A stretch of 13,654 nucleotides of DNA, from positions 1 through 13,654 of the forward strand of contig JBJXGI010000026.1 of the NCBI GenBank assembly GCA_046153645.1, read 5' to 3'. Every line of letters begins with the position of its first letter. Position 1 is the first letter of the stretch. The notes below the pieces were generated by a model. That model was not told the DNA's origin, ran no database searches, and saw only the letters and a list, made by a program, of their open reading frames with translations. The DNA is from Elusimicrobiota bacterium. GTDB lineage: Bacteria; Elusimicrobiota; Elusimicrobia; F11. A program made the position numbers and the translations under genes. Positions 1 through 13,654 of the stretch are shown piece after piece.

Positions 1-296
1 CAAGTATGCGAACCAATTTCGTGGCCGTCTTGTTTAATTCTTTTCATAACCGCATCGTGCTTATTTACGGCTTGGCCCAAAACAAAAAAAGTAGCTTTTA
101 CATTTTCTCTTTTAAGCAAATCTAAAAATTTTTCAGTATTGGGACCAGGGCCGTCATCAAAGGTCAGTGCGATTTTTTTCTCTGAGGTTTTGCCGGAAGC
201 AAAAAAGTCGCCCGGATTCATATTTGAAGCCGAAAGAGGGTTAACTGCGATGAAAAGAGTAAAAAATAAACCCGTCATATAAAAATAATTATTCAT
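1..296 (-). CDS. Polysaccharide deacetylase (NodB / CE4 family), 5' part only; runs off the left edge
   Basis: Not in the ORF track; translated by hand: MNNYFYMTGLFFTLFIAVNPLSASNMNPGDFFASGKTSEKKIALTFDDGPGPNTEKFLDLLKRENVKATFFVLGQ...DGHEIGSHT. Contains the CE4 motifs TFDDGP, ATFFV and GHEIGSHT plus a signal-like N-terminus. ATG at 296 overlaps the upstream stop; an alternative in-frame ATG is at 278. Confidence 0.93.
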   Translation of the reverse strand, partial: MNNYFYMTGLFFTLFIAVNPLSASNMNPGDFFASGKTSEKKIALTFDDGPGPNTEKFLDLLKRENVKATFFVLGQAVNKHDAVMKRIKQDGHEIGSHT

Positions 297-1221
297 TAAT
301 AACCTCTGGATTCCAAAAATTAAAAATACGTTCTTGTGACACGACGTCTCCAGTAGGAGATAAAACAACTCGCACCTTTCCCCTCACCAATCCTTTCGAT
401 GAAAAAAGAAGGGTTCCCCATTCCACCTGCCATCCCTCAGGAAACTTATTCACTCTTGCCACCGGCCAGCGTGCGGTTTCAAAAAAATTTTTGGCAAGTG
501 GTGCTGACAAACTTTCGGTCACAGGAAATTTCTTTTTAGGCATTGAGAACGTGCGATCAACACTTTTGTTTCTTCGAAATAAATCAATTATATATGTTCG
601 ATACATTTTATGATCTGTATCGGTTTCAACGCCTCGCCACTGAAATGGGTTTACTGTCCTGGGAAGAGCTGTTGCTAATATATTTTCATTGATCATTATA
701 TTCTGAGCATATATCTTCGCTGAAAGACTTGCTCCTAAATATATAACCCAAGCAAACCAAATATATTTGGTCCCTTTCCATCCGTAACCTTTTTTTCGAT
801 TCAACCAATAAAGACCAAAACCCATAAACAAAATAGGAATAAAGGTAAAAGCTTGTACCCAGTCTAATGAAAATTCCTGAAAAGAAAAAGGCAATAACAA
901 TGGGACCCCAAAAATTGTCATAAAGTCACATAAAGAGTGTAGGCCAATAACAAGCCCATAGCCTAAAAACCTTTTTCTAAAAGGGCCTTCATCCCATTTT
1001 TTTAAAGCCCAAGCAAAAATAAAAGTTTGAGCTATCAAGCCAAAAAGTGAATGGGAAATTCCTCTATGTTGAAAAGCACTGGCCCAACTTCCAAAAAAAC
1101 TAAAAACGATATCTATATCAGGAAAAAGCGAGAGTCCGATCATTATCCAAAATCTTTTATTTGATGCATGAACAGACTTGCCTGCCACGGCCCCCACTAA
1201 AGCGTGGGTTAACGGATCCAT
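289..1221 (-). CDS. Inner-membrane metal-dependent hydrolase (YdjM / 'LexA-binding' family)
   Basis: Family motifs MDPLTHAL, PDID, HRGISHS and HSLCD, several hydrophobic segments and a soluble C-terminal extension. Confidence 0.85.
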   Translation of the reverse strand: MDPLTHALVGAVAGKSVHASNKRFWIMIGLSLFPDIDIVFSFFGSWASAFQHRGISHSLFGLIAQTFIFAWALKKWDEGPFRKRFLGYGLVIGLHSLCDFMTIFGVPLLLPFSFQEFSLDWVQAFTFIPILFMGFGLYWLNRKKGYGWKGTKYIWFAWVIYLGASLSAKIYAQNIMINENILATALPRTVNPFQWRGVETDTDHKMYRTYIIDLFRRNKSVDRTFSMPKKKFPVTESLSAPLAKNFFETARWPVARVNKFPEGWQVEWGTLLFSSKGLVRGKVRVVLSPTGDVVSQERIFNFWNPEVINE

Positions 1222-1928
1222 TCTTGTCCTTTCTCAATAATTTTTACCCAAGCATAACCTGTTTCTTTCGCCACTGTTTTCATGTAATCACGCATTTTCG
1301 GAGCACTCTGAAATAAAGTAACGCCCAGAAGCCCCAGAATCAAAATGTTTCCAATAAAAATGAGAACTCCAGATAAAAATAAACCCAATACTTTTAAATC
1401 TGGCTGGTGATGGTGAACCGCAGAGAATGTCATAGATATATGGAACATAAGTGTCGCACCCATAAGGAATTGAAAAGAAGGCAACAAATAAGGATGTGTC
1501 CAAAAGTGACGAACCAAGGCGTATAACAAAATAATAACGGCTGTATAAAAAGGAAGAATGTAGGGAGACAACGCAATAAAAGCGTTTGATTTGGAAAGGT
1601 GAACTTCTCCGCCTTTTGAAGTAGCTTTAAAAGAATGTATTTTAGCTCCAGTGAGGAGCCCCGAAACAACATGGGTACTTTCATGACCAAAAACATAAAG
1701 CCACATAGGTTTGGCAACCCATTTTTCTATAACAAAGTAAAAACCCGCGCCAACCAAATAAATCCATAACGTCTTCCAACCGGACTGCGTCACAGAAAAA
1801 GCCACTTGGTATAACCCCAGTGAAAGCCCCCAAGCCAATGGCAATAAAATAACGCCCATTGTCCAGCGACTGAGACGGCTGATTCCTTTTTTAAGCACTC
1901 GAAAAGAGTGTTTCTTTTTTCTAGGCAT
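1209..1928 (-). CDS. M50B-like intramembrane zinc metallopeptidase
   Basis: Polytopic membrane protein with HExxH (FGHESTH) next to a TM segment, followed by GG-x-V, IALSPY and a later QPDL Asp (possible third ligand). TAATG coupling to the upstream gene at 1928. Confidence 0.75.
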   Translation of the reverse strand: MPRKKKHSFRVLKKGISRLSRWTMGVILLPLAWGLSLGLYQVAFSVTQSGWKTLWIYLVGAGFYFVIEKWVAKPMWLYVFGHESTHVVSGLLTGAKIHSFKATSKGGEVHLSKSNAFIALSPYILPFYTAVIILLYALVRHFWTHPYLLPSFQFLMGATLMFHISMTFSAVHHHQPDLKVLGLFLSGVLIFIGNILILGLLGVTLFQSAPKMRDYMKTVAKETGYAWVKIIEKGQEWIR

Positions 1929-2428
1929 TACTCGAACATATAATCTTCAAATGGAATCTTTTGAGCACGCAATTCTTCTTTCCATAATTCAAGAGTTGTA
2001 AGGGCTTTTTTCCTTGCCATTTTCACCCATTTTGATTCAGGTGGGCTAAAAAGTTCATACGTATCTTTGTACCACTGGTAGGCGTATTTTAAAGATGATT
2101 CTGACATATGGAAATCATAATTAAATTGGAGAGCATCTAAACGTTGTCGATACTGATCGGGAGGAAGTTTTCCTTTTTTAAACAACTCTTCAACTTCTTT
2201 TTTCCCTTTTTCTAATTCCATTTCAAAATATTTTTTCTTTTCTTCGGGATGAGAACTCCAATGAAAATATTTTTCGCCTTCAAGAAAGCTTTCTTTGGCT
2301 CGAGATCGAACGTCAAGATAAACAATAATATTAACCCCAATAATTCCCAAAATGACAAGGCAAACATTTTGGATCCAACGCTTCTTCCACCAAGGTGAAT
2401 TTATTTGATTGGGAATAGGTTCAGACAT
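1928..2428 (-). CDS. Hypothetical single-pass membrane protein with a helical, charged soluble domain
   Basis: ATG at 2428 (MSEPIP) is preferred over the track's TTG at 2461, which lies inside panD. Basic WWKKR precedes one TM (VCLVILGIIGVNIIVYL). Its stop overlaps the next start. Confidence 0.75.
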   Translation of the reverse strand: MSEPIPNQINSPWWKKRWIQNVCLVILGIIGVNIIVYLDVRSRAKESFLEGEKYFHWSSHPEEKKKYFEMELEKGKKEVEELFKKGKLPPDQYRQRLDALQFNYDFHMSESSLKYAYQWYKDTYELFSPPESKWVKMARKKALTTLELWKEELRAQKIPFEDYMFE

Positions 2429-2435
2429 TTTTGAA

Positions 2436-2822
2436 TTAATTCTTACGTTGGCTTCGATCAACCTGCGTCTTGATCGCTATAATTTTATTTTTATCATTTA
2501 CTCGGACAAATTTGGGAATTAAGCGATGAGCGGCCTCTTCTTCCATCCATGCGACCGACATAACAATTATTTTATCACCAGGTCCACCTAAACGGGCAGC
2601 AGCGCCATTTAATCCAATCGTACCTGAGTTTTTAGGGCCTTTAATTACATAGGTTTCAAAACGCTGTCCATTGGAGAGATTGGCAATTAAAACCATTTCA
2701 TGCTCTAAAATGTCAGCGGCTTCCATTAATTTCTGATCAATTTCGATACTGCCTTCATAATCTAAACGACTCGAAGTAATAGTGGCACGATGTATTTTAG
2801 CACGACACATGCGTCTTAACAT
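2436..2822 (-). CDS. panD: Aspartate 1-decarboxylase proenzyme
   Basis: From ATG 2822: MLRRMCRAKIHRATIT...YEGSIEID places K9, H11 and the G24-S25 self-cleavage site at canonical positions. Also NGQRFETYVI and LNGAAAR. Confidence 0.98.
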   Translation of the reverse strand: MLRRMCRAKIHRATITSSRLDYEGSIEIDQKLMEAADILEHEMVLIANLSNGQRFETYVIKGPKNSGTIGLNGAAARLGGPGDKIIVMSVAWMEEEAAHRLIPKFVRVNDKNKIIAIKTQVDRSQRKN

Positions 2823-2878
2823 AGTAAGGGATCCTTTCAATTTATATAAGAACTGAGACTGAAAGAGTATATTATCTA

Positions 2879-3481
2879 TTAGATGCGAATTTGAGGAGGG
2901 TTATTCTTGAGATTAGTTAATATTTGTTCGACTTCTAAAGCTTCTTGTAATTTTCCCGTTTGTTTTAATTTATCAACAATAATGACTAATTTTTCAACTT
3001 CTGTAGAAACTAAATCGCGCTCTTTTTTAAGTTTAACTCTCAAACTAGCTAAGGTTTGATTAAATAAATCTCCCACTTCTTTAAGTTCATCATGTTTCCT
3101 TAAACGAACCTGCACAGTAAAATCCCCGCTTCGCATAGCTTCTAGCGTTTTTTCAAAACGATAAATGGGGCCAGCGATAAAATGAGAGAAAAATAAAGTT
3201 AAGGCAAAAGTAATGGCCAAAAGGATAACGCTTGTTTTAAAAATAATTCCATTGAGCAATTGCAACTGAGTTGTTGCTTCTCCTTGTTGAACAATTCCAG
3301 TTTCGATCATTTTATTAACAATCCATCGTCCTTCTAGATAAATAATAAGCGTGGCAAAAGTGAGGAAAGCTAAAATAATAAAACTAAATTTAAGCTGAAA
3401 ATTCGTCTTGATTATTTTCTGGCCAAACCAACGTGGTCGAGCTGAGGGGGATTGTGGCATACCATTATTTTCTTGAGACAT
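2879..3481 (-). CDS. Stand-alone two-TM HAMP-domain membrane protein with no output domain
   Basis: Two TMs flanking a short (~30 aa) loop, then HAMP (SHFIAGPIYRFEKTLEAMRSGDF...RKHDELKEVGDLFN) and a short coiled coil. AAGGAG SD 5 nt before the ATG. Confidence 0.85.
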   Translation of the reverse strand: MSQENNGMPQSPSARPRWFGQKIIKTNFQLKFSFIILAFLTFATLIIYLEGRWIVNKMIETGIVQQGEATTQLQLLNGIIFKTSVILLAITFALTLFFSHFIAGPIYRFEKTLEAMRSGDFTVQVRLRKHDELKEVGDLFNQTLASLRVKLKKERDLVSTEVEKLVIIVDKLKQTGKLQEALEVEQILTNLKNNPPQIRI

Positions 3482-3511
3482 ACACGCTCCTTATAATGAC
3501 CTATGAGAGAT

Positions 3512-3540
3512 AGATTACTGTGCTAAGATCCATTTTGCAA
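3512..3540 (-). promoter_or_regulatory. Putative sigma70 promoter for the HAMP-panD block
   Basis: Minus strand TTGCAA (3540-3535) - 17 nt - TAATCT (3517-3512), in the intergenic gap about 30 nt upstream of ATG 3481. Confidence 0.6.
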
Positions 3541-3555
3541 CTGCTTTGAAAAAAA

Positions 3556-3906
3556 TCATGTCAGGGTTATTCCCCCCTCAAAAGCCAAGGCAGAAATAAC
3601 ATCACGCAAGGTTTCATGGTCTACCACGTCATCAAAAGCCAATCCTGCAAAATAATAACCATCTTCATAAGAAACCCTAATAACACGAGACCTTAAATTA
3701 TTAAAACGAGCTCCGTCTTTGAGTGAAAATGTAACGTAAACCACCCCGGCTACTTTAACGGGATAGCGAGTTTCCATTAATAAACCCTCCGGGCTTAAAT
3801 TACAAATTCTTCCCCAGCCTTCTTTATAGGGGCCATCAGGAAACTGTAATCCGACAGGGATACTTGTCGAAAAACGAACTGTTTTCCGACGTTCAATTTC
3901 CATCAT
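3556..3906 (-). CDS. Single-domain PilZ protein (putative c-di-GMP receptor)
   Basis: Both PilZ motifs are present: RxxxR (RKTVR) and D/NxSxxG (NLSPEG), with a C-terminal AGLAF. 116 aa. Confidence 0.9.
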   Translation of the reverse strand: MMEIERRKTVRFSTSIPVGLQFPDGPYKEGWGRICNLSPEGLLMETRYPVKVAGVVYVTFSLKDGARFNNLRSRVIRVSYEDGYYFAGLAFDDVVDHETLRDVISALAFEGGITLT

Positions 3907-5113
3907 TTTTTTTACCTTTTTCTTCGGTTTTTTTCTCTTTTATGACTTTCCCTTCTTTCCATCCTGAAAGCGATTTATAGAGTGCACTGATGGGCTTTGA
4001 ATTCATCCGCGGATCACCGCCAGAAACAACCCACAATCGATCAAACCCGGCGGCAAGCCCAGAAGGCTCTACACCTTCTGCTAAGAGGTTGTTGGCGAGA
4101 TAGGGCCCTCTCCAAATATAGGAATCTCCCATTTTTTCAAAAGATGCTGCCTTTAAAGGAGAGTCTCCAATAATCCAAAACCTTTTCCCATCCCAAGCAA
4201 GCCCGGTTGGTTCTTGAATAATAGAAGGAATCGTCTCTATGACTCGAAAATCTCCTCCGTGGCGATAAATCAAAGAAGTTTGTTTATCAATAGACCATAG
4301 ATATTCTCCATCCCACACAAGCCCTGTTGGATTGGTTCCAGGAACGGGAGCCGCTTGCAACGTGGGAAGACCAATCACTCTTTGATGACTGCGAAATTTC
4401 AAATCAAAACCAATAGTAACCAACGCTTCTGGTGTGTTACAAACTAAAATCGGCTGAGTGTCTTGTAACCTAAACATTCCCACCGTCTCCAATTCTCGAT
4501 ACTGAGGGAGAATTCCCGATTGCAAACGATATTGTGTGATGGTTGAGTCCATCCAACTGCCCACCCACAAATCCCGAGAGTCCCATTGGAGACCAGATAA
4601 CGAAGCAGATCCCAGAGAAACAGTGGTAGGCGGGGCGCCCATTCGAATTTTTTGAATTCCCGATAAAAGTAAAAGCCCCAACACAACTCCGCTCACGATT
4701 TTTGAGGCGGGATGATGCGATTTATAAAGCTTGGCAGAAAAAAGAGTTCGCCCATTTTTTAAGGTGGCTCTTTTTGAAGCGGCAAGAATTTGAAATGGAT
4801 CCATTTTTCCTGAAAGGCAATCAAAAGCCCCGGCCTTCATTATTTGGAGAGCTACATCCATTTTATTTTCAGTCATAGTCACTAGAAAAGGAGTTGTCGG
4901 ACTATTCACCTTTAAATTTTGATCCAATACTCTTAACGTTTCTAATTCACCTTGAAATGATGCCACAACCAAGACTGGTGGCTCTTTACCTAACTTCTCT
5001 AATGCGAGTTCTAAATGCGGAACAGCTTCAGATTTTATTTCTACCGAATCATAAATTTTTTTTATTTTTTTGAGAGCTTTACTTTCAAAACCAATCAAAA
5101 GAACTTTAGACAT
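3893..5113 (-). CDS. Aspartate-less receiver domain + TM + extracytoplasmic beta-propeller-like repeats
   Basis: Residues 1-118 follow the REC pattern (KVLLI; PPVLVVAS; PTTPFLVT; MKAGAFDCL). Hydrophobic stretch at 139-153. Repeats LSGLQWDSRDLWV, PTGLVWDGEYLWS, PTGLAWDGKRFWI and PSGLAAGFDRLWV. Confidence 0.75.
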   Translation of the reverse strand: MSKVLLIGFESKALKKIKKIYDSVEIKSEAVPHLELALEKLGKEPPVLVVASFQGELETLRVLDQNLKVNSPTTPFLVTMTENKMDVALQIMKAGAFDCLSGKMDPFQILAASKRATLKNGRTLFSAKLYKSHHPASKIVSGVVLGLLLLSGIQKIRMGAPPTTVSLGSASLSGLQWDSRDLWVGSWMDSTITQYRLQSGILPQYRELETVGMFRLQDTQPILVCNTPEALVTIGFDLKFRSHQRVIGLPTLQAAPVPGTNPTGLVWDGEYLWSIDKQTSLIYRHGGDFRVIETIPSIIQEPTGLAWDGKRFWIIGDSPLKAASFEKMGDSYIWRGPYLANNLLAEGVEPSGLAAGFDRLWVVSGGDPRMNSKPISALYKSLSGWKEGKVIKEKKTEEKGKKNDGN

Positions 5114-6524
5114 GGCCTTCTCCCACCAAACCAGAAGAAGATTTTGGGATATAGGGAAGCTCGAGTTGAAATGTTGTTCCCGATGAGCTGGTTTGTATCA
5201 GTTGGAGAGAGCCCCCATGAACTTCTGCATAACGCCTAGACCGACTTAAGTTAAGCCCTTGCCGATGTTCTTTTGTTGTAAAGAAAGGCTGGAAAATTCT
5301 CTTCACAAGATGATCAGAAATTCCTGTTCCGGAATCTTTTATAAGGACACAAATACTTTTCCGAGCTGTTTGATTTTTTAACGATATCGTTATACGTCCG
5401 GCTTCTCCAGGAATGGCTTCTAGAGCATTTATCAATAATGTTTTCAGAATAAATGAAACAAGCGCGGGATCGCCTTGAATGCCAGGCATGGGATCATCAG
5501 ATAAAAATTCCACAGATAACGATGGTTTTCTATTGGCATAAATATCGGCCAACTGCTGCTCCACAACATCTTTGATTAAAATATTTTCAGATCTTGTTAG
5601 CCGACGACCAGTCAGATGAAGGTAATCGTCCAAGGCAGAGGTCACTTCTTGAATTTGACCTTGAATACTTTTGAAATTTTGACTTAACTCTCCCGCCCCC
5701 TCAACAAAAAGTTTAAAACGAGTCCGCCAAAATGCTTCTGATGTTGATTCTGGATCTAACAGACCCAAGCGTTCTAAAGTTAAAAGAAGTTGACCTTGAG
5801 TAGAAACAAGTGCCGTTCGAACACGATGGGCCACTCCATTGGCAAACATATCTTCTTCTGCCCAACTTAGTTCTTGTTTTCTTCTCAAAGCTATTTCCAT
5901 TTCATCTAATAACTTCTTTTGAACCAATGAAATTTCTTCTTGTTTTTGTGTTGCCAGTGTTTGATTATTTTCAGCAAACAGTGAACGCATATTCGTCAAT
6001 CTAGACTCAAGATCTTTTAACTGATCTTTAAGAGCTTCATGATTTTCGGCAAAATAGCGAACATCATTCTCTCTACTTTTTAACTGTTGTATTCGCAAAT
6101 CTTCAGCTTTTTGTTGGAAATCTCTTATTTTTTTTCTCAACGTTTCATTTTCAATATTCAATTCTGCCACACGGCGCCTTAATTCTTGAGCTTCCTCTTC
6201 AATATCAGTTTTTTCACGTTCTAAATGACGACGATCTTGATCTAAAGTTAACGTTTTTGTTTTTAACTCATCTTCTCCCACGCCCATAATAGAGCGTAAA
6301 AGGTCATTTTCATCTTTCCAAATTTGGATTTGACCTTGAACATTCTGAGAAAATTCTCCGATGTTTTTTTCAAAACCATCCAAATCGCTCAAATATTCTC
6401 TAAAGAGAATTTCTTTTTCCGTTTCACTGACACCCGGAAGCGCCCATAATCGTTCAGCAATTTTTTCTTTAAATTGTCGAAGAGCTTCTTGCCAAGCTTT
6501 TAATGTATCCTCAGTCACTCTCAT
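5106..6524 (-). CDS. Soluble histidine-kinase-like protein (long coiled coil + DHp + HATPase_c) with degenerate motifs
   Basis: H-box-like GVAHRVRTAL (H233), N box LLINALEA, G1 DSGTGI, F box IFQPFFTTK, altered G2 RQGLNL and VHGG. About 220 aa of E/K/Q/L-rich helix at the N-terminus; no TM. Confidence 0.88.
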   Translation of the reverse strand: MRVTEDTLKAWQEALRQFKEKIAERLWALPGVSETEKEILFREYLSDLDGFEKNIGEFSQNVQGQIQIWKDENDLLRSIMGVGEDELKTKTLTLDQDRRHLEREKTDIEEEAQELRRRVAELNIENETLRKKIRDFQQKAEDLRIQQLKSRENDVRYFAENHEALKDQLKDLESRLTNMRSLFAENNQTLATQKQEEISLVQKKLLDEMEIALRRKQELSWAEEDMFANGVAHRVRTALVSTQGQLLLTLERLGLLDPESTSEAFWRTRFKLFVEGAGELSQNFKSIQGQIQEVTSALDDYLHLTGRRLTRSENILIKDVVEQQLADIYANRKPSLSVEFLSDDPMPGIQGDPALVSFILKTLLINALEAIPGEAGRITISLKNQTARKSICVLIKDSGTGISDHLVKRIFQPFFTTKEHRQGLNLSRSRRYAEVHGGSLQLIQTSSSGTTFQLELPYIPKSSSGLVGEGHV

Positions 6525-8017
6525 GGAATAACCAGCTTTGAACCTGTTTTTGGAAGACCTCGTTCAATTTTATCAGGATTGGCGTTATAGATTTTTCGCC
6601 ACTGGTTGGGATCACCGTAATACTCGCGCGCGATACTCTGTAAAGTGTCGCCAGCTGAAACCGTATGAATTTTAATAGAGGCTTTTTTCTCTCTTAATTC
6701 GTTGGCCTCATGTCGATGGTGAGAGACATTTCCTTCAAGTTCTTTTATTCTTTCTCTGAGAGATCGGATCGTCGATTCCCTTTCTCCGAGTAAATCATCA
6801 TCCTTTAACGCTTTAATTCGCGCTTTCATGTTATTGAGTTCATCTTCCGCCATTTTCCTTTTCTGTTCTATTTCAGAAAGAGAATTTTTTAACTGAGCTT
6901 CTTCTTGAGTCAACTGAATAACTCGTTGATCTAATACTCCTGCCGCTTCTAAGGCTTTGTCATAATAAATCTCAGTAAATTGAGGGCGACCAAACCGATA
7001 AGAAAAAGAAGCTCTGAATTGACCCGAATTATCGGTTACGGTTTTTAAGGGGATCAAATAAGAAATATCAATTTGCATTGGTGAAAGATAAAAACCAATT
7101 CCTGTGGCCAGATGGTCAATTGCGCCACTATCACGATGTCCCCAGCCCAACCTGGGCCTTAACACTCCTCTTGATAAAAGCCATTCCAACCCAGGATGAA
7201 ACCGCCAAACTCCGCCAGAGCCATACTCCAAATCTAAAAACATATCGAGATATTCCAAGTGACGACGCACAACACCAAAATTGAGTGAAGGCCCGCGAGG
7301 ATCTCCATCTCCTGGAAAAAGATGACGAAGAGCAAACCCAACTTGATGCTGACGGTTGATTGGAACAAAAAAACCACCGGTTAGTCCTAACCCAATTTTT
7401 GATTTTCCCACATGAGAGGCTCGATCTTCGCCATTTTGATGACGGAGTGTTAAGGCAAGACCTGCTTTAACTGGAAACTTAATAAATCCTTTGGTCCAGC
7501 GATCAGCAGGGGCGTCAGTTCCTCCCCCCACTGTAACATCAATAATATGAGCTCCAGGAGCTGCTTGTTCTCCATAAAATCCGACCGCCAAGGGAACAAA
7601 TTTCTCCTTATATCGATACGGGAAACCATAAATACCATTAAAATCAGATCGCGCCGATTCATTTTTACTATAAGACCGCCCATAATCTAATGATAATTCT
7701 TCTTGGTTTAAATTAAAAAGACCGGCAGGATTATAAAAAAGGTTATAAACATCTCCCGAAACAGCGGTATACCCATTTCCCAAAGCAATGGGACGCGCTC
7801 CACGACTGCGGTGAGGAGCGGCGTGAGCGAGAACTGTCATTGTGACAATAAAAACAACCGCAAATATAAGCATTAACATCCAACTTGGTTTTGGTTGTTT
7901 ATTCCAGATAGGTCGGGATGCAGAAAGTTTAATATCGGTAGGAATTCGATACTTAAAAATATTTGATTTCGATCTGTTTTCGAATGAATTGAGTTTTTTA
8001 GAGTTTTGTATTCGCAT
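6521..8017 (-). CDS. Outer-membrane beta-barrel (FadL/PorV-like) + coiled coil + LysM
   Basis: Signal-like segment ending LAHA/A. Plug motif GARPIALGNGYTAVSGDVYNLFYNPAGL. Alternating strands ending FRASFSYRFG (~aa 343), heptad-rich aa ~352-446, and LysM HTVSAGDTLQSIA...WRKIYNAN...GSKLVIP. Start uncertain (8017 or 7879). Confidence 0.85.
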   Translation of the reverse strand: MRIQNSKKLNSFENRSKSNIFKYRIPTDIKLSASRPIWNKQPKPSWMLMLIFAVVFIVTMTVLAHAAPHRSRGARPIALGNGYTAVSGDVYNLFYNPAGLFNLNQEELSLDYGRSYSKNESARSDFNGIYGFPYRYKEKFVPLAVGFYGEQAAPGAHIIDVTVGGGTDAPADRWTKGFIKFPVKAGLALTLRHQNGEDRASHVGKSKIGLGLTGGFFVPINRQHQVGFALRHLFPGDGDPRGPSLNFGVVRRHLEYLDMFLDLEYGSGGVWRFHPGLEWLLSRGVLRPRLGWGHRDSGAIDHLATGIGFYLSPMQIDISYLIPLKTVTDNSGQFRASFSYRFGRPQFTEIYYDKALEAAGVLDQRVIQLTQEEAQLKNSLSEIEQKRKMAEDELNNMKARIKALKDDDLLGERESTIRSLRERIKELEGNVSHHRHEANELREKKASIKIHTVSAGDTLQSIAREYYGDPNQWRKIYNANPDKIERGLPKTGSKLVIP

Positions 8018-8037
8018 AGCAATGTAGGGGCTATGCG
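8013..8037 (-). promoter_or_regulatory. 8-bp hairpin containing the first ATG of the barrel-LysM gene
   Basis: Perfect inverted repeat CGCATAGC (8013-8020) / GCTATGCG (8030-8037) with a 9-nt loop. The ATG (8017-8015) lies in the 3' arm of the minus-strand RNA. Confidence 0.5.
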
Positions 8038-8040
8038 TTT

Positions 8041-8094
8041 AAAAAAAAACGCCTTAAACCGCCTTACTCAGGAAGGGTAAAGGGTTTAAGGCGT
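8041..8094 (-). terminator. Rho-independent terminator
   Basis: 12-bp perfect stem ACGCCTTAAACC (8049-8060) / GGTTTAAGGCGT (8083-8094) with a partly paired interior, and a 9-U tract on the minus strand (A run 8041-8049). Confidence 0.88.
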
Positions 8095-8131
8095 AAATTC
8101 AAGTTAATTTGAGATTTTTTAGAAGATTAAC

Positions 8132-8245
8132 TTAAGCAGACTTTGCAGCTTTCAAAGCGGCTTTTTTTCGCTTGATGCGCCGCTTCCAACGTTGGTCATG
8201 TTTATGTCGTTTTCTTTTTTGTCCACTTTTTGTTCGATGACTCAT
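8132..8245 (-). CDS. Small, highly basic 37-aa protein (not in the ORF track)
   Basis: MSHRTKSGQKRKRHKHDQRWKRRIKRKKAALKAAKSA. AGGAG SD at 8260-8256, 10 nt before the ATG. Fills the intergenic gap and is followed by a terminator. Confidence 0.8.
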   Translation of the reverse strand: MSHRTKSGQKRKRHKHDQRWKRRIKRKKAALKAAKSA

Positions 8246-8273
8246 AAATATTTAACTCCTATATAAACTTAAA

Positions 8274-9002
8274 TTAGTAAGTAACAAGCAAGGCAACTGT
8301 CGTAATAGTATCGTTACGACTAAAACCTATGGGAGGAACTCCCACATGTTTCCATTTGTAGGAAACTTTGAGTGAGAAATTTTTTGTCAAAGCCGCTGTT
8401 AAGGCTGACTCTGTATTCACACGAAAATCTTCACTGTCTTCAAAGTTATGAAGATATTCCGCATCTTGACTAATATTGGCTGTTGGACTAAAAGTCCATA
8501 CATATTTACTATAACCGCGTCCAACGGCAAAGTCATTTTTGGGGCCAACAGTTCTTTCTTCAGAAATAAATCCACCTCCAAGTTCACCAATAAGATGATG
8601 AGCGGAAGTTTTGACAAGTTCACGCCCTAACCCAGCACCCATATCGTAACGATTTTTGATACCAGCAAAGCGGTTTTTATCCCAAGCATTTTTTTGAAAA
8701 GCATAATTTCTATCGCTTAACTTATAGGAAAGTTTTTCACTGGCAAAATATTGTTCGGCTGTCGTGGTACCCTTGCTGTTGGAACCAAGCGCGCCCGCAA
8801 TTAATTCCAATGTGGTTTTAGACCAATTATATTTATAGGTATTTTTAGCAGAACCTGTAGTTGACTTGGTATTACCATTGGCACTTACAACAGACAATTC
8901 GGATTGATTTGACCATGGTTTTTTCACTTCTTCAGAAAAAGAGGAAACTGCATTTATAGCTACAAGGCCTAAAACCAAACTTAAATTAAATAATTTTCTC
9001 AT
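8274..9002 (-). CDS. DUF481 / YdiY-like outer-membrane beta-barrel protein
   Basis: Start at ATG 9002 (MRKLFNLSLVLGLVAINAVSSFS signal) with AAAGGAG SD. W...ANGNT motif, DKNRFAGIKNR, and a C-terminal beta-signal ending LLVTY. Confidence 0.85.
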   Translation of the reverse strand: MRKLFNLSLVLGLVAINAVSSFSEEVKKPWSNQSELSVVSANGNTKSTTGSAKNTYKYNWSKTTLELIAGALGSNSKGTTTAEQYFASEKLSYKLSDRNYAFQKNAWDKNRFAGIKNRYDMGAGLGRELVKTSAHHLIGELGGGFISEERTVGPKNDFAVGRGYSKYVWTFSPTANISQDAEYLHNFEDSEDFRVNTESALTAALTKNFSLKVSYKWKHVGVPPIGFSRNDTITTVALLVTY

Positions 9003-9025
9003 TGTTTTTATAGCTCCTTTAAAAA

Positions 9026-9439
9026 TTAAGCAACTGAGGTGCAAAACGCACATTTCGTTGCTTTAAGTGGAATATTTGAAAGACATTGACCACAAGCTTT
9101 GGTGGTGGGAGCAGCAGGCGCTTCAGCTTTTTTGAAACTATTGAGAAGTTTGATCATCATAAAAATAGCAAATGCCACAATAGCAAAGTTAACGACCTCA
9201 TTAACAAACACACCATACTTAAGAACCACAGCTTTGGCATCGCCCTCGGCAGGTTTCAGAACAAAACCTAGATCAGAAAAATCAACATTTCCCATTAACA
9301 TTCCAATGGGCGGCATAATAACATCATTAACAAGGGAAGCAATAATTTTCCCAAAAGCGCCTCCAATGATAACACCCACCGCCATATCAACCACATTTCC
9401 CTTCATCGCAAAATCTTTAAACTCTTTTATCATACTCAT
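9026..9439 (-). CDS. mscL: Large-conductance mechanosensitive channel with a C-terminal Cys4 tail
   Basis: [41 protein letters not shown] and [23 protein letters not shown]. Confidence 0.98.
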
Positions 9440-9455
9440 ATTTTTCTCCTATAAA

Positions 9456-9863
9456 TTATTTAGCGCTGTTTTGAGGATCTGCCAAAAAGTCATCTGAAAT
9501 AGAGTGAACTTCAGTAACAAAATAAGGCGTATCTCCAAAAATTTTCATTGGAATCCCTTTGTGCTCATTATATTTCAGTACAATTCTTTGGCCTAACGCT
9601 TTATTGATTTGATCTGAGACAGATTGATCACGGACAGTAAAGTAAAACTTCTCGGGAGCTGATCCGGGTAAATTAACCATAGACAGTTCTCCCTCCCATG
9701 TTTTAAAAACCCATCCTTTCTTTGAGAATTTTTGTAGATAACCAGCACGCTCACCCGTTGAATACACATATTTAAGTGACCCATAGGTCCAAGCTACAAA
9801 ACCAAGAATTCCGACAATTAAAATTAAAGCAGTTGTTTTTATAAACCAACGAATGAATGGCAC
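9456..9863 (-). CDS. Conserved hypothetical membrane-anchored protein (YSxGxRxG...KGWxFKTWEGEL type)
   Basis: GTG start with AAAGGA SD. One N-terminal TM followed by a beta-rich soluble domain. Confidence 0.8.
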   Translation of the reverse strand: MPFIRWFIKTTALILIVGILGFVAWTYGSLKYVYSTGERAGYLQKFSKKGWVFKTWEGELSMVNLPGSAPEKFYFTVRDQSVSDQINKALGQRIVLKYNEHKGIPMKIFGDTPYFVTEVHSISDDFLADPQNSAK

Positions 9864-9876
9864 AAATTTATCCTTT

Positions 9877-9914
9877 AAAAGAAAAGGGCCCTCCGCTTTA
9901 ACGGAGAGCCCTTT
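9877..9914 (-). terminator. Rho-independent terminator of the ompA-like gene
   Basis: Minus RNA AAAGGGCUCUCCG-UUAAAG-CGGAGGGCCCUUU then UCUUUU. The single irregular pair is G-U only on the minus strand. Begins 12 nt after the stop. Confidence 0.9.
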
Positions 9915-9926
9915 GGTTAAGACGGT

Positions 9927-11180
9927 TTATCGGCTCAAAACCTTGAATTCAATTCGTCGGTTTTTTGCGCGGCCTTCTTTGGTTTTATTGTCTACCAAAG
10001 GTCTTGTTTCTCCATAACCAGCGGAAGTTAATCGGTCAGCAGCAATACCTTTTCCGACCAAATAATTCTTCACACTCATGGCTCTTTTATCTGAAAGCGC
10101 TTGATTAAGTTGAGTTCCACCGATATTGTCAGTATGACCTTGAACTTCAACTGTTACCGTTGGATTGGCTTCTAACACTCCAGCAGCTTTATCAAGAACA
10201 ACTTTTCCTTCGGCTTTTAATTTATCTGAACCTGATTCAAAATTGACGCCTTCTAACACCCAATCATTTTTAGGAATGACTTTCGCCTCATCAGCAGGGC
10301 AACCATCGGCTTTAACAGCAATTCCAACTGGAGTACCAGCGCATTGATCAACATCATCTTTCACGCCATCGCCATCAGAGTCACCTGCACAACCATACAT
10401 ATCAACTTTGATTCCGGCTGGGGTGTTGGGACAAGTATCTTTGCTATCAACAATACCATCGCCGTCTGAATCTGCTTCACAACCACGTCCATCAACATTG
10501 GTTCCAGTGGGGGTTCCAGGGCAGGCATCATTATCATCAATAACACCATCTTTATCAGAATCTTTTGGAATTGCTGTGACAGCAGCAGGAGCTGGAATTT
10601 CTTTTTTGACAGGAGCTGAATCAGAATGTCCTCCAAATAAGAGTGAAAGTCCACCAGTGGCGGTCCCGATATTTTTAGCAGTTCCACGATCGACATTAAT
10701 ATAATGACGACCATCAACTCGAGCAGCCAACCAAGAAGTAAGCATCCATTTAAGACCTAAACCATAACCAACCAAACCATCTGTTCTTACCCCTCTAATT
10801 CGAAGGGCATTACCAGCCATTTCTTCTGGATTGGTTTGAATGGCTCCACCAGCAATTGCAAAGAAAGGTCTCAAACAAGATTGACCAAAATGATATTGAA
10901 TTTCACCTGTAGGAATGAGCACATCCGCTTTAAAAGGAGAATTTTTAATTTCGGTATCTTCTCCAACAACAGAAGCTTCAACGGCCCAATTTTCAGTTAA
11001 ATAATGACCAATTCGGCCACCAACAATTCCATCTTCATCTAGACCGTGGTTTCCTTCAAAGAAAACTCCTCCGGCTTGAAATCCTAATTCTGTTTTACCT
11101 TGATATGATGCATCAGAATAACCGATAGACGACGCGGCCAAAACCAATGACATATAAGCAATAATTGATGTACGACGCAT
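9927..11180 (-). CDS. OmpA/OprF-family outer-membrane protein (beta-barrel + TSP3-like repeats + OmpA_C peptidoglycan-binding domain)
   Basis: Signal peptide, N-terminal barrel ending GLSLLFG, Pro/Ala linker, acidic Cys repeats, then VNFESGS, GHTD, NQALSDKRA, GYGETRP and NRRIEF. AAGGAGG SD. Confidence 0.95.
   Translation of the reverse strand: MRRTSIIAYMSLVLAASSIGYSDASYQGKTELGFQAGGVFFEGNHGLDEDGIVGGRIGHYLTENWAVEASVVGEDTEIKNSPFKADVLIPTGEIQYHFGQSCLRPFFAIAGGAIQTNPEEMAGNALRIRGVRTDGLVGYGLGLKWMLTSWLAARVDGRHYINVDRGTAKNIGTATGGLSLLFGGHSDSAPVKKEIPAPAAVTAIPKDSDKDGVIDDNDACPGTPTGTNVDGRGCEADSDGDGIVDSKDTCPNTPAGIKVDMYGCAGDSDGDGVKDDVDQCAGTPVGIAVKADGCPADEAKVIPKNDWVLEGVNFESGSDKLKAEGKVVLDKAAGVLEANPTVTVEVQGHTDNIGGTQLNQALSDKRAMSVKNYLVGKGIAADRLTSAGYGETRPLVDNKTKEGRAKNRRIEFKVLSR
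10299..10562 (-). repeat. Three 30-aa (90-nt period) thrombospondin type 3-like Ca-binding repeats
   Basis: DSDKDGVIDDNDACPGTPTGTNVDGRGC / DSDGDGIVDSKDTCPNTPAGIKVDMYGC / DSDGDGVKDDVDQCAGTPVGIAVKADGC. Confidence 0.9.
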
Positions 11181-11365
11181 GTTGTGTCCTCCTTAGACTT
11201 TTCGCTTATCTTGCGATATAGCAAACATTAAAATGATTAATAAATACAAATAGACTTTGTATTAAACTTTTAAAATTCTCTCTTCCAGGCTTTTAATGAG
11301 TAAACCACTTCGGATTTTTAATAGAAAGAAGAAAAATAGCAGTGTCTATAATAAATACAGATGGC

Positions 11366-11394
11366 AGGTTACGAATCAAACCAGAAAGTGTCAA
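11366..11394 (-). promoter_or_regulatory. Putative sigma70 promoter of the ompA-like gene
   Basis: TTGACA (11394-11389) - 17 nt - TAACCT (11371-11366), with a T-rich UP-element-like tract upstream. Confidence 0.75.
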
Positions 11395-11422
11395 GAAATT
11401 TCAAGCAAAAAAACTTAAAAAA

Positions 11423-12439
11423 TTACTTAAATTGTTTCGCAACTTCTCTTAAGAATTCTTCGGGCAAATCGCTGATCAGTGTAAAATAGCGTGAACCCGA
11501 AGAAGATCGAACAATACGCTCAGGGAGAGCGGTGGGGTTTACCATATCAGAAGAGCTTTCCTTTAACGGCATTTTCATTTGAACCGGCTTATTTGATTGA
11601 AATATGGAAATAATTGCCATCCCATCCGTGTAACGGAGATGATGAACTTGTTGCTGGGACGCTGTTGATAATACGTCAAAACTTTCGAATACAAAACCAT
11701 GCGGAAGCTCTCTCGGATAAGGAAAGAGTTGATTATTTTTTTCTTCCCATTCAGGAACAGATAAAAAAGAAGGTGAAAATTGGTGCGCCATCAAATCACC
11801 TTGATTCACTTCTTGAGTATTGATGGAAATTTCCTTCTCTTTTAAAGGATTAAACTCTACGAAACGCGAAACAACCATATAGGAATCTTCGGGGCGAATT
11901 CGCTTATTTTCTAAGACAACTCCCGATAATTTATCAACTCGTAACTCTTGGGTAGGCTTTTCTCTAATTTTTGGGGAAATCTTTAATACCCAGACACGAC
12001 GATCAATCATATCTTCATCTTTTTCTAATTGAAGATCGTAATTTTTCATCAAAAACTTAAATTCAACCTCATCTGAAAACTGCTTAGATTTAGACTTAGC
12101 GCTTACGCCTTTAAATCCTTTTTTTTGATTTGCAAACCATGTCGTTTGAAAATCGCCATCACTTTGAACGACTTTATAAACCTTCCCTTCGGGTGTTAAA
12201 AAACGAAACTGATACTGATGGGGCGGAACATAGGTGACCAGCAACTGCTCAACGACAGAAGAAGAGTCTTGTGTTTTAATGATAATAACTCGTCCTCGAT
12301 AAGAAATATTGGGATTCGACAAAGCCTTTTTAAAAACACGCATTGACGCCACCTCTTGATCCTCAGAAAAAACAAGCGATAAGGTAAAAATTCCAAATAA
12401 AAATAAAAATGGCGAGAAATTAATTCTGGCTGGAAACAT
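11423..12439 (-). CDS. RseB/MucB-like periplasmic sigma-E regulatory protein (LolA-like fold)
   Basis: Signal-like N-terminus from ATG 12439 (the track uses TTG 12448). SYRG, NYDL...RRVWVLKISPK...VDKLSGVVL, LPHGF and HLRYTDGMAIISIFQ match MucB/RseB patterns. Third gene after sigma and anti-sigma. Confidence 0.85.
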   Translation of the reverse strand: MFPARINFSPFLFLFGIFTLSLVFSEDQEVASMRVFKKALSNPNISYRGRVIIIKTQDSSSVVEQLLVTYVPPHQYQFRFLTPEGKVYKVVQSDGDFQTTWFANQKKGFKGVSAKSKSKQFSDEVEFKFLMKNYDLQLEKDEDMIDRRVWVLKISPKIREKPTQELRVDKLSGVVLENKRIRPEDSYMVVSRFVEFNPLKEKEISINTQEVNQGDLMAHQFSPSFLSVPEWEEKNNQLFPYPRELPHGFVFESFDVLSTASQQQVHHLRYTDGMAIISIFQSNKPVQMKMPLKESSSDMVNPTALPERIVRSSSGSRYFTLISDLPEEFLREVAKQFK

Positions 12440-12902
12440 ACATAGCAAGCTGAATGGACGGATTTGATTGGACCATATCAGCTGAGGGCACTAAATTCTC
12501 ATATTCGTATTGGTGATGAGCTGCTAATAAACTCTCCAACTCAATGGACGGTTCTTGTTTACGAAAATTCCAAGAAAACCATGTGCCCGCAACCAACACC
12601 ACAGCAAATGCAACTCCTAAAGGGCGCCAAAGCGGGCGAAGATTGGAAATTTTTTGACGAAAGGATAAAGTTTTATCAACAAATGTATCTTTGGGAGCCT
12701 GAGATTTCAGATGAGCCAGCAAATCAATAGGAGCATTTTTTATCGGCAACAACTCAAGTCTATTTTTAATTTCTTTAATTTCATTGAGTTCCTGTGAACA
12801 ATGTTCACACGTTTTTAAATGCACCTCAACTTGACTACGGAAATCTTTTGGGAGAACTCCATTTATATAGTCAGACAATTTGTCTTCAAATGCGTCATTC
12901 AT
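12420..12902 (-). CDS. Membrane-bound zinc-binding anti-sigma factor (ZAS / zf-HC2)
   Basis: LSDYING...HLKTCEHC (HxxxCxxC), one TM (LGVAFAVVLVAGTWF) and a short periplasmic tail. Overlaps the sigma gene stop. Confidence 0.92.
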   Translation of the reverse strand: MNDAFEDKLSDYINGVLPKDFRSQVEVHLKTCEHCSQELNEIKEIKNRLELLPIKNAPIDLLAHLKSQAPKDTFVDKTLSFRQKISNLRPLWRPLGVAFAVVLVAGTWFSWNFRKQEPSIELESLLAAHHQYEYENLVPSADMVQSNPSIQLAMYVSSQN

Positions 12903-13506
12903 TTAATTTTAAACCCTTATTTTCTTTGGCAGTTAAAATCTTTTTTAAAAGCAACCGCCCTTGATGAATTCGAGAAGAAACAGTTCCGATCGGGCAATCC
13001 ATAATTTTACCTATCTCATCATAAGACATTTGTTCAATATCATATAAAACAACCGCGGTTCTATAATGAACAGGAAGTCTGTTTAATGCATTTTGAAGAA
13101 GTTTTTCATCTTCAGCACGAGCTAACGTTTCCAAAGGTTCTTCATCTTTCCCTTGAATTATTTGATCCCAAGACCCTTCTTCATCTTTTTTTAATGGGGC
13201 GTCCATAGAGACCGAATGTTTGTACTCATATCGGCGAACTCTATCTATAAAAACATTGTGAAGAATACGGTTTAGCCAAGCATTAAAAGGACGAGTAGAA
13301 TCAAACCGATCTCGATGCTCAAAGGCTCGAGCAAATGCCTCTTGAACCAGATCACGAGCATCTTGATCGTTTCCACACAACCTGAAAGCAAAATTATAGG
13401 CCCGATCGGCGGATTGTTCAATTAGTTTTTCAAACTGACTCAATTGTTCCTGAAAGGCGATTTCCGATGTTTTGTGATTGGCATAAGAATAGGTTTTTGA
13501 GTTCAT
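12895..13506 (-). CDS. ECF sigma-70 family RNA polymerase sigma factor (RpoE/SigW-like)
   Basis: Region 2 (DARDLVQEAFARAF; FNAWLNRILHNVFID) and region 4 (LPVHYR; SYDEIGKIMDCPIGTVSSRIHQGR). 203 aa. Confidence 0.96.
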   Translation of the reverse strand: MNSKTYSYANHKTSEIAFQEQLSQFEKLIEQSADRAYNFAFRLCGNDQDARDLVQEAFARAFEHRDRFDSTRPFNAWLNRILHNVFIDRVRRYEYKHSVSMDAPLKKDEEGSWDQIIQGKDEEPLETLARAEDEKLLQNALNRLPVHYRTAVVLYDIEQMSYDEIGKIMDCPIGTVSSRIHQGRLLLKKILTAKENKGLKLNE

Positions 13507-13514
13507 GCCAGATG

Positions 13515-13540
13515 TACGAATAAAGGAACAATTTGTTTGA
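13515..13540 (-). promoter_or_regulatory. Putative ECF-type autoregulatory promoter
   Basis: TCAAAC (13540-13535) - 16 nt - CGTA (13518-13515). One mismatch to the B. subtilis SigW consensus TGAAAC-N16-CGTA; ends 8 nt before the ATG. Confidence 0.6.
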
Positions 13541-13654
13541 ACTCAAAATATTCCTTTGGGTAAATCGGATTGACTTTCCCATATTAAAACTTCGGTATCA
13601 TTTTTTTTTGCAGTAATCGTTAAGCTTTGTTTCTGAGTTATTCTCGCAGAATCC

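Follow-up and report, generated by a model that had tools for sequence, protein, structure and literature searches.

A barrel, degenerate receiver–propeller and PilZ gene module in Elusimicrobiota as a candidate phosphorylation-free envelope switch

We analysed a 13,654-nucleotide stretch of DNA from an Elusimicrobiota bacterium (GCA_046153645.1, contig JBJXGI010000026.1, positions 1–13,654). This stretch, hereafter the window, makes up contig C61 of a genome of 2.6 Mb and is even in base composition along its length; gene coordinates follow its numbering, and L, G and C numbers are analysis labels for loci, genomes and contigs. It holds a cluster of four genes that may encode a switch connecting the cytoplasm to an outer-membrane anchor. 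All four open reading frames are intact, lie on the minus strand and overlap one another by 4, 8 and 14 nucleotides, as the initial annotation had reported, and the domain assignments made there (barrel–coil–LysM, kinase-like, receiver–transmembrane–propeller and PilZ) were borne out by family matches and structural models.

6521–8017, minus strand: PorV/PorP-type outer-membrane barrel protein, 498 amino acids (aa), assigned by family match, model and fold match
5106–6524, minus strand: soluble pseudo-histidine-kinase, an optional component, 472 aa, with a long coiled coil, a DHp domain and an HATPase_c domain
3893–5113, minus strand: receiver–membrane–propeller protein, 406 aa, with a pseudo-receiver (residues 1–120), a transmembrane helix (135–157) and a five-bladed beta-propeller (164–374)
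3556–3906, minus strand: single-domain PilZ protein, 116 aa, over the family cut-off, with RxxxR (R7, R11), NxSxxG (N36, S38, G41) and WG(R) (31–33) motifs

The order barrel, kinase, receiver–propeller, PilZ was found on one contig in 7 of the 11 genomes of the same family. Three more genomes are consistent with this order but are cut by contig ends, and the last one (71% complete) yielded receiver and PilZ only. At 52–60% identity, full-length kinase orthologues occur in 10 of these 11 genomes, and not one of 29 further genomes of the class has a kinase this close. With a kinase that is less similar, all four genes stand in the same order in G031 and in two genomes from another class (L174 and L179). 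The search for homologues and gene neighbourhoods proposed with the initial annotation thus found co-conservation both in the window's family and in a second Elusimicrobiota class. Other junctions in the window overlap as well (panD with a gene for a 177-aa protein, this gene with one for a 239-aa protein, and the latter with YdjM), so tight junctions by themselves are weak evidence; it is the same gene order in relatives that makes the cluster more than chance.

A form without the kinase is commoner. The barrel gene directly precedes the receiver–propeller gene in 44 of 44 kinase-less loci (41 of 41 among L085–L125, plus L039, L042 and L044; six duplicate loci were left out of the count, frames are split in L114 and L123, and some bases of L092 are unread). 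These 44 loci leave the idea of a four-part system unsupported, and gene-order comparison makes the kinase-like gene an optional component. The best 50 full-length barrel relatives (L076–L125) carry Elusimicrobiota-type record titles, except for three titled 'bacterium'. Members of the PilZ subfamily were present in 18 of 151 sampled genomes of the phylum, and the two largest families of the sample had none (0 of 45 and 0 of 44 genomes). The system, which is found in several families, thus has a patchy distribution and is not universal.

The barrel protein begins with a signal-peptide-like hydrophobic stretch (residues 46–64), followed by 14 strands (residues ~107–341), two long helices of 60 and 34 residues (residues ~347–446) and a LysM domain (451–498). 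It scored 40.3 bits against NF033709, the PorV family, below the 90-bit cut-off, and its LysM domain was matched; PorP_SprF (PF11751) gave no match to the window protein and matched 3 of 30 relatives. The structural model (mean predicted local distance difference test score, pLDDT, 84) contains the 14 strands, short N-terminal helices, the two long helices and LysM, and thus has the 14-stranded barrel and N-terminal hatch region of the FadL type. Its best Foldseek match was chain F of the type 9 translocon 6h3i (E 1.9e-10), which we take to be PorV, with FadL-type channels next. Outer-membrane barrels with an even number of strands have both termini in the periplasm. With 14 strands, the stalk (~94 helical residues) and the LysM domain are therefore predicted to be periplasmic.

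The model of the receiver–propeller protein (pLDDT 94) consists of a receiver, one hydrophobic helix and a propeller of five blades. At the five sites that characterize canonical receivers (the acidic pair, the phospho-accepting Asp, Thr/Ser and Lys), the window receiver has G, F, S, M and G, and receivers of its family keep the canonical residues in 0, 0, 1, 0 and 3 of 12 sequences. Among kinase-less receivers, neither the phospho-Asp column nor the Lys column has its canonical residue in any of 44 sequences, and many have an Asp one residue later. Receivers of the second class, read by eye, keep the Asp and have lost the acidic pair and Lys. By contrast, all five sites are kept in 9 of 9 paralogous receivers of a type described below, which we call intact. 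In these paralogues, the sole domain attached to the receiver is the propeller across the membrane, an architecture without a cytoplasmic output. The initial annotation had proposed that both phosphorelay partners are degenerate while their frames are intact, and this was supported, under continued sequence conservation, as was the inverted topology, in which the kinase-like protein is soluble and the receiver is predicted to be membrane-anchored. A single-sequence scan of the genome contigs with the receiver–propeller protein gave no match.

The closest folds to the propeller are glutaminyl cyclases, at only 10–16% identity. We rejected glutaminyl cyclase activity, because 0 of 65 members matched Glu_cyclase_2, the glutamine cyclotransferase Pfam family, at E 0.01 and no cyclase chain was matched by sequence. 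In other bacteria, the same propeller family is fused to a transglutaminase-like domain (P0049, P0050).

The kinase-like protein has no transmembrane segment, and its HATPase_c domain is closest to that of ZraS among solved structures. In the window protein, the phospho-accepting His is present (His233, positions 5828–5826) and is followed by Arg, the N and G1 boxes are intact, and the G2 box reads QGLNLS. Across 11 orthologues, the H-box residue is His in 3, Gln in 7 and Asn in 1; the residue after it is basic in all 11 (Arg in 10, Lys in 1), where an acidic residue is expected of canonical kinases; and the third and last glycine of the G2 box is Ser or Asn in all 11. The family thus lacks the conserved phospho-His and following acidic residue that mark canonical two-component kinases. 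The Arg after the His is weak evidence by itself, because another kinase of this genome has it. The N-box Asn and the DxGxG of the G1 box are invariant (11/11), the F box is kept, and Thr stands four residues after the H-box position in 9 of 11. On these residues, nucleotide binding is possible and catalysis doubtful. One possible explanation for the retained features is that the protein still acts as a slow kinase, phosphatase or ATPase towards another response regulator, for which His233, the nucleotide-binding boxes and the conserved Thr would speak. We consider this highly improbable, given the replacement of His by Gln or Asn in 8 of 11 orthologues, the basic residue after it and the altered G2 box in all of them, the absence of the phospho-His from the kinases of G031, L174 and L179 as well, and the existence of fusions without a catalytic domain.

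In these fusions, found in a sister clade, a coil and DHp-like helices are joined directly to a degenerate receiver and propeller. Profile alignments (hhalign) gave 96% (E 3e-9) and 100%. The fusion gene occupies the same slot, after a barrel–LysM or LysM-ending gene, in seven loci (L160, L161, L163, L164, L166, L167 and L171, of which L161 and L166 have the same flanks). Consistent with a role in docking, helix 1 of the DHp domain is the best-conserved segment of the kinase, with 83% identity among orthologues versus 52% for the catalytic domain; a variable His within a highly conserved helix is what would be expected of a docking surface. The idea that DHp and receiver form a docking module therefore gained a gene-fusion argument from the sister clade, while their physical contact is something we infer. 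The N terminus of the fusion has a DYWKR-type motif in common with the long kinases of L034 and L046. L034 is a variant with a second long kinase after the receiver–propeller gene (L034:9910-11271), and in L052 (L052:3-7922) and L053 very long coiled-coil kinases (855 and >2600 aa) precede an intact receiver–propeller gene.

The genome has one copy of this PilZ subfamily and 11 GGDEF matches. Motifs for binding cyclic di-GMP (c-di-GMP), as well as non-binding PilZ variants, have been described (10.1101/2020.02.11.943704). Both motifs are present in 11 of 11 PilZ proteins of the window's family (10 by a strict definition) and, by eye, in the second class likewise. They occur in just 3 of 43 kinase-less PilZ proteins and are absent in G031; the WG motif is invariant across all 55. 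Gating by c-di-GMP, which had been proposed for the system, is thus unsupported as a general feature. A PilZ gene comes next in 10 of 11 family loci (one is cut), in all 3 of the remaining four-gene loci and in 43 of the 44 loci without a kinase (one is cut). It comes next in none of the loci of the other types, which number 10 with an intact receiver, 1 intermediate, 8 receiver-less, 4 lipoprotein and 7 fusion loci (one fusion locus is cut). L155 was left out of this count, and L174 and L176–L181 had been selected through their PilZ. By gene-neighbourhood comparison, PilZ accompanies degenerate receivers only.

The paralogous loci differ from the window in a way that bears on where the module came from. 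In the intact type, a cargo gene is followed by a barrel–LysM gene, a gene for a short, soluble, sensor-less kinase (217–290 aa) with the motif AHQ(I/V)RNP, and a complete receiver–transmembrane–propeller gene. In the receiver-less type, a cargo gene is followed by a barrel of 700–770 aa and a transmembrane propeller; this type is also found in the window's own genome, on C99. There (L155, C99:213-5859), a cargo protein with fn3 repeats and a CHU_C tail precedes a 758-aa barrel with a helical extension and a transmembrane propeller with a low-complexity region in the receiver's place. In 4 of 4 genomes of family f3, the gene after barrel–LysM encodes a propeller that has a lipoprotein-like Cys signal (by eye) and no receiver, and no PilZ of the window subfamily was found anywhere in these four genomes with a profile built from window-type members. 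The linkage between barrel and propeller thus survives the loss of receiver and PilZ. In a propeller tree of 56 rows, each layout falls on its own branch; the branches are long and the root is a midpoint root, and we take no order of events from it. By sequence comparison, the most constant link is that of barrel with propeller and the second that of degenerate receiver with PilZ; the kinase is variable.

This constancy bears on the idea that two separate functions lie side by side, with the barrel–LysM protein an independent wall anchor and the receiver–propeller, PilZ and pseudo-kinase an inner-membrane ligand sensor or enzyme. Such a division would fit five loci of another class (L176–L178, L180 and L181), where receiver–propeller and PilZ occur with no barrel within the fetched 7–11 kb. 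It would also fit L050/L051, where kinase and receiver–propeller lack a barrel at contig ends, L054, where a barrel has no propeller match, and the cyclase-like fold of the propeller. We nevertheless regard it as improbable, since barrel–propeller adjacency is kept through four different layouts and the propellers match no cyclase by sequence.

In 4 of 4 barrel-bearing intact loci and in 7 of 7 receiver-less loci with the layout given above, the gene immediately upstream of the barrel gene encodes a cargo protein with a type IX-like sorting tail. These cargo genes form one cluster, two representatives of which are over the CHU_C cut-off. The window's genome also encodes a SprA-like protein of 1801 aa (C100:33154-38559; E 1.5e-25, below cut-off); a SprA-like match was found in 39 of 41 genomes, in all cases below cut-off. 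There are 23 PorV-family matches in the genome, 14 of them over the cut-off. GldM and GldN gave no match in the genome, but control searches were equally empty. Several proteins of the window's genome have type IX-like C-terminal tails (on contigs including C40, C79 and C99), and one open reading frame on C79 spans 8730 aa. These tails, the SprA-like protein and the PorV-family matches hint at a class-wide type IX-like system in reduced form.

With intact receivers encoded behind cargo genes for sorting-tail proteins, the module resembles an anchoring cassette of the PorP–PorE type connected to a switch in the cytoplasm. The initial annotation had mentioned neither the link to type IX cargo nor the paralogues with intact phospho-sites. 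The Bacteroidota complex has a 14-stranded PorP-like barrel that keeps type B cargo outside the cell and binds the propeller-bearing wall anchor PorE, and the genes are often ordered cargo, barrel, PorE (PMC9143113, PMC12618676). The cluster described here likewise combines a 14-stranded FadL-family barrel, a periplasmic propeller protein and a peptidoglycan-binding domain, and the order cargo, barrel, propeller is found in the Elusimicrobiota paralogous loci only. It differs in that wall binding is assigned to a LysM domain carried by the barrel on a helical stalk, whereas PorE itself has an OmpA-like domain. Furthermore, the propeller is inner-membrane-anchored and joined to a cytoplasmic receiver, the window cluster has no cargo gene, and the host, Elusimicrobiota, lies outside the phyla usually given for type IX secretion. 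PorE is a lipoprotein with TPR, propeller, CRD and OmpA-like parts; the window's propeller protein gave no OmpA-like or TPR match.

Three other systems offer partial precedents. HapZ (PA2799) of Pseudomonas aeruginosa binds the SagS receiver at high c-di-GMP (10.1101/2020.02.11.943704); here, too, a single-domain PilZ with both c-di-GMP motifs stands beside a receiver domain (see also PMC12564702). However, SagS is an active hybrid kinase, whereas the receiver in the window is not canonically phosphorylatable and is fused to a membrane helix and propeller. The co-occurrence of the two genes suggests that PilZ may bind the receiver in the Elusimicrobiota cluster. In Caulobacter, DivL retains a kinase fold as a non-catalytic module that docks the receiver DivK (PMC4211667), much as we propose for the pseudo-kinase. 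DivL reads a phosphorylated, soluble receiver, whereas the receiver here is degenerate and membrane-bound and the pseudo-kinase is soluble, led by a coiled coil and dispensable in most loci. The proposed logic also resembles that of LapD–LapG–LapA (PMC3032553), in which cytoplasmic c-di-GMP acts through an inner-membrane protein and a periplasmic domain on the cell surface. The four genes include no GGDEF/EAL receptor, HAMP, periplasmic protease or type I secretion gene, and none of the 16 window proteins matched a Lap part (GGDEF–EAL receptor, periplasmic cysteine protease or type I secreted adhesin). Consistent with the claim of the initial annotation, no described system with this layout was found in the literature searched, which excluded subscription papers and supplements. 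Every element has a precedent; for the combination none was found, and it falls outside two-component systems, PorP–PorE and Lap alike.

We favour, with a probability of roughly 40%, a reading in which barrel, receiver–propeller and PilZ, together with an optional kinase, form a phosphorylation-free, inside-out switch acting on an outer-membrane anchor. The module probably derives from a type IX secretion-like cargo-anchoring cassette. This reading draws on comparison of sequences for gene order, the catalytic loss of the receiver, the variable His in a conserved helix, the pairing of PilZ with degenerate receivers and the cargo-linked intact paralogues, and on predicted folds for the 14-stranded barrel with its periplasmic ends, stalk and LysM domain and for the five-bladed propeller beyond one membrane helix. 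Inside-out control is favoured by the receiver having no cytoplasmic output.

We infer the physical coupling, direction and output of the module as follows. The LysM domain would bind peptidoglycan, and the stalk or barrel would touch the propeller, as PorP contacts the propeller-bearing PorE. Relative to that cassette, wall binding would have moved onto the barrel, and the propeller would have been given a membrane anchor and a receiver. In the intact type, phosphorylation of the receiver would provide the inside-out input. In the window type, this role would fall to a PilZ adaptor and a DivL-like dead kinase: in the window's family, PilZ would bind c-di-GMP and dock on the pseudo-receiver as HapZ does on the SagS receiver, replacing phosphorylation as the switch, and the pseudo-kinase dimer would use its DHp helix to bind this receiver too, either as a scaffold or in competition, after the manner of DivL and DivK. 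The state of the receiver would then pass through the membrane helix to the propeller and alter the way in which the barrel is held or what the barrel displays. A complex prediction for the mature barrel–stalk–LysM protein (433 aa) and the propeller (225 aa), with alignments of 50 rows each, scored 0.21 against a mark of 0.32, without folded controls, and so speaks neither for nor against a contact.

Several observations weigh against this reading. The c-di-GMP motifs are lost in 40 of 43 kinase-less PilZ proteins, so the second messenger is not a universal input. Degenerate receivers also occur without PilZ, in 6 of 7 fusion loci (one cut) and in L127; conversely, a divergent PilZ beside intact receivers could have escaped a profile built from window-type members. 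The five loci without a nearby barrel also count against it, as does L175, where PilZ is found alone. The fusion was found in a sister clade, profile scores are raised by coiled coils, and single-sequence HMM (hidden Markov model) scores for it are weak. None of the 50 window-type rows for which upstream genes were listed (some rows being duplicates) has a cargo gene upstream of the cluster; the notion of 'cargo display' is accordingly taken over from the paralogues. Related genomes are not independent samples. Finally, the anatomy is compatible with outside-in sensing and with a static tether as well.

As an outside-in sensor, the barrel, stalk and LysM domain would signal strain in the envelope or contact with a surface to the propeller, and from there through the pseudo-receiver to the pseudo-kinase and PilZ and on to other cytoplasmic proteins, for example a CheY-like regulator encoded nearby. 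Anatomy and synteny fit equally; the intact paralogues pair a sensor-less kinase with a membrane receiver, so that the receiver–propeller protein could be the kinase's sensor, and 6 of 9 family loci have an intact CheY-like gene after panD. However, the window has no such CheY-like gene, and the best match in the genome (37%) is not a clear orthologue; in the 44 loci without a kinase PilZ is the only cytoplasmic partner, with no linked DNA-binding or enzymatic output. We consider outside-in sensing unlikely.

Slightly less likely again is a static tether or polar landmark that links outer membrane, wall and inner membrane and gathers cytoplasmic proteins at one site, its signalling folds serving as docking surfaces, in the way that FimV anchors the PilZ protein FlgZ (PMC12564702). 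It is possible to read the decay of every catalytic site in some lineage, including the c-di-GMP motifs, in this way, and a tether would accommodate the lipoprotein–propeller form, which has no cytoplasmic part at all, and the long coiled coils of the barrel protein and pseudo-kinase. The retention of c-di-GMP motifs in all 11 family members, and by eye in the second class, is at odds with a purely static role, and the complete receiver in 9 of 9 paralogues argues for switching.

The inside-out switch, if true, would be a new signalling route across both membranes, built from a secretion-system anchor, and living genomes would show a two-component pair exchanging phosphorylation for a c-di-GMP adaptor and later for plain docking. 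A bolder form of it, somewhat doubtful in our view, is a reverse two-component system, a new kind of signalling device, in which the output of the regulator is a periplasmic propeller that grips a type IX-like barrel anchored to the wall. Surface proteins would be displayed or released under the control of phosphorylation in the intact paralogues and of PilZ and a dead kinase in the window, and the phylum would keep a series that runs from a phospho-switch through a switch using c-di-GMP to a mere scaffold, all set on a pared-down type IX system. If right, either form would point to type IX-like cargo handling in a phylum for which no description of it, or of PorV- or SprA-like proteins, was found in the literature searched (subscription papers and supplements not covered). 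The receiver, PilZ, DHp, propeller and stalk–LysM parts are small and soluble, which opens the main contacts to in vitro work that does not depend on growing the host.

The limits of the cluster are marked upstream by two overlapping features.

8074–8102, minus strand: promoter-like motif, TTGAAT (8102–8097), a 17-nucleotide spacer and TACCCT (8079–8074)
8041–8094, minus strand: terminator-like hairpin followed by U9, overlapping the promoter-like motif

Both hexamers are invariant columns in the window and 5 of 5 aligned relatives, with the consensus TTGA(A/T)T-N17-TA(C/G)(C/G)CT. The hairpin (8094–8049; −26.5 kcal/mol, z −4.82, 0 of 200 shuffles) is followed by nine U and was missed by a pattern-based promoter and terminator scan; its 3′ arm is not kept in the aligned relatives (n = 5). 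These alignments suggest to us that what relatives conserve upstream is a promoter, and that the hairpin overlapping it is a local terminator for a small upstream gene. Since the 5′ arm lies upstream of the predicted start site, the hairpin would halt read-through from the upstream gene and would not form on the operon's own RNA. Downstream, the pattern scan of the window listed no promoter in 3482–3555 (it gave 29 sites in the window in total, against 32.8 expected by chance), and no hairpin forms there (z +1.9). In relatives, the next same-strand gene, a HAMP or panD gene, begins as little as 21 nucleotides after PilZ. Of the boundaries initially proposed, the upstream hairpin is thus real, the promoter-like motif being what is conserved there, and the downstream promoter is unsupported. 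With no downstream boundary signal and with same-strand genes close after PilZ in relatives, a closed four-gene operon is unsupported too.

Immediately upstream of the cluster, an unlisted open reading frame (8131–8245, minus strand) encodes a very basic 37-aa protein, presumably reminiscent of small basic ribosome-associated proteins; Lys/Arg-rich ends like its own precede the promoter-like motif in relatives. On the other side lies a 200-aa HAMP membrane protein with a short coiled tail and no output domain (2879–3481, minus strand), which follows PilZ in L021, L027, L029, L030 and L059. The 177-aa protein (1928–2461, minus strand) is a single-pass membrane protein without a Pfam or NCBIfam match. 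It is often encoded near the cluster, directly after PilZ in L174, and its Atlas clusters are unnamed and mostly from Elusimicrobiota. Despite linkage in several loci, we rejected it as a fifth component because 32 of 41 genomes have it, some of them from families that lack the cluster. The intact, single-domain CheY-like gene of the six family loci (L021:12184-12672, L022, L024, L026, L027 and L029) lies between panD and the gene for the 177-aa protein; its absence from the window, with only a distant best match in the genome, led us to reject it as an obligatory partner. Further away (11423–13506, minus strand) is an ordinary-looking trio of ECF sigma factor, zinc-finger anti-sigma factor and RseB-like genes, followed by OmpA, MscL and DUF481 genes; in relatives, this region is unlinked to the cluster.

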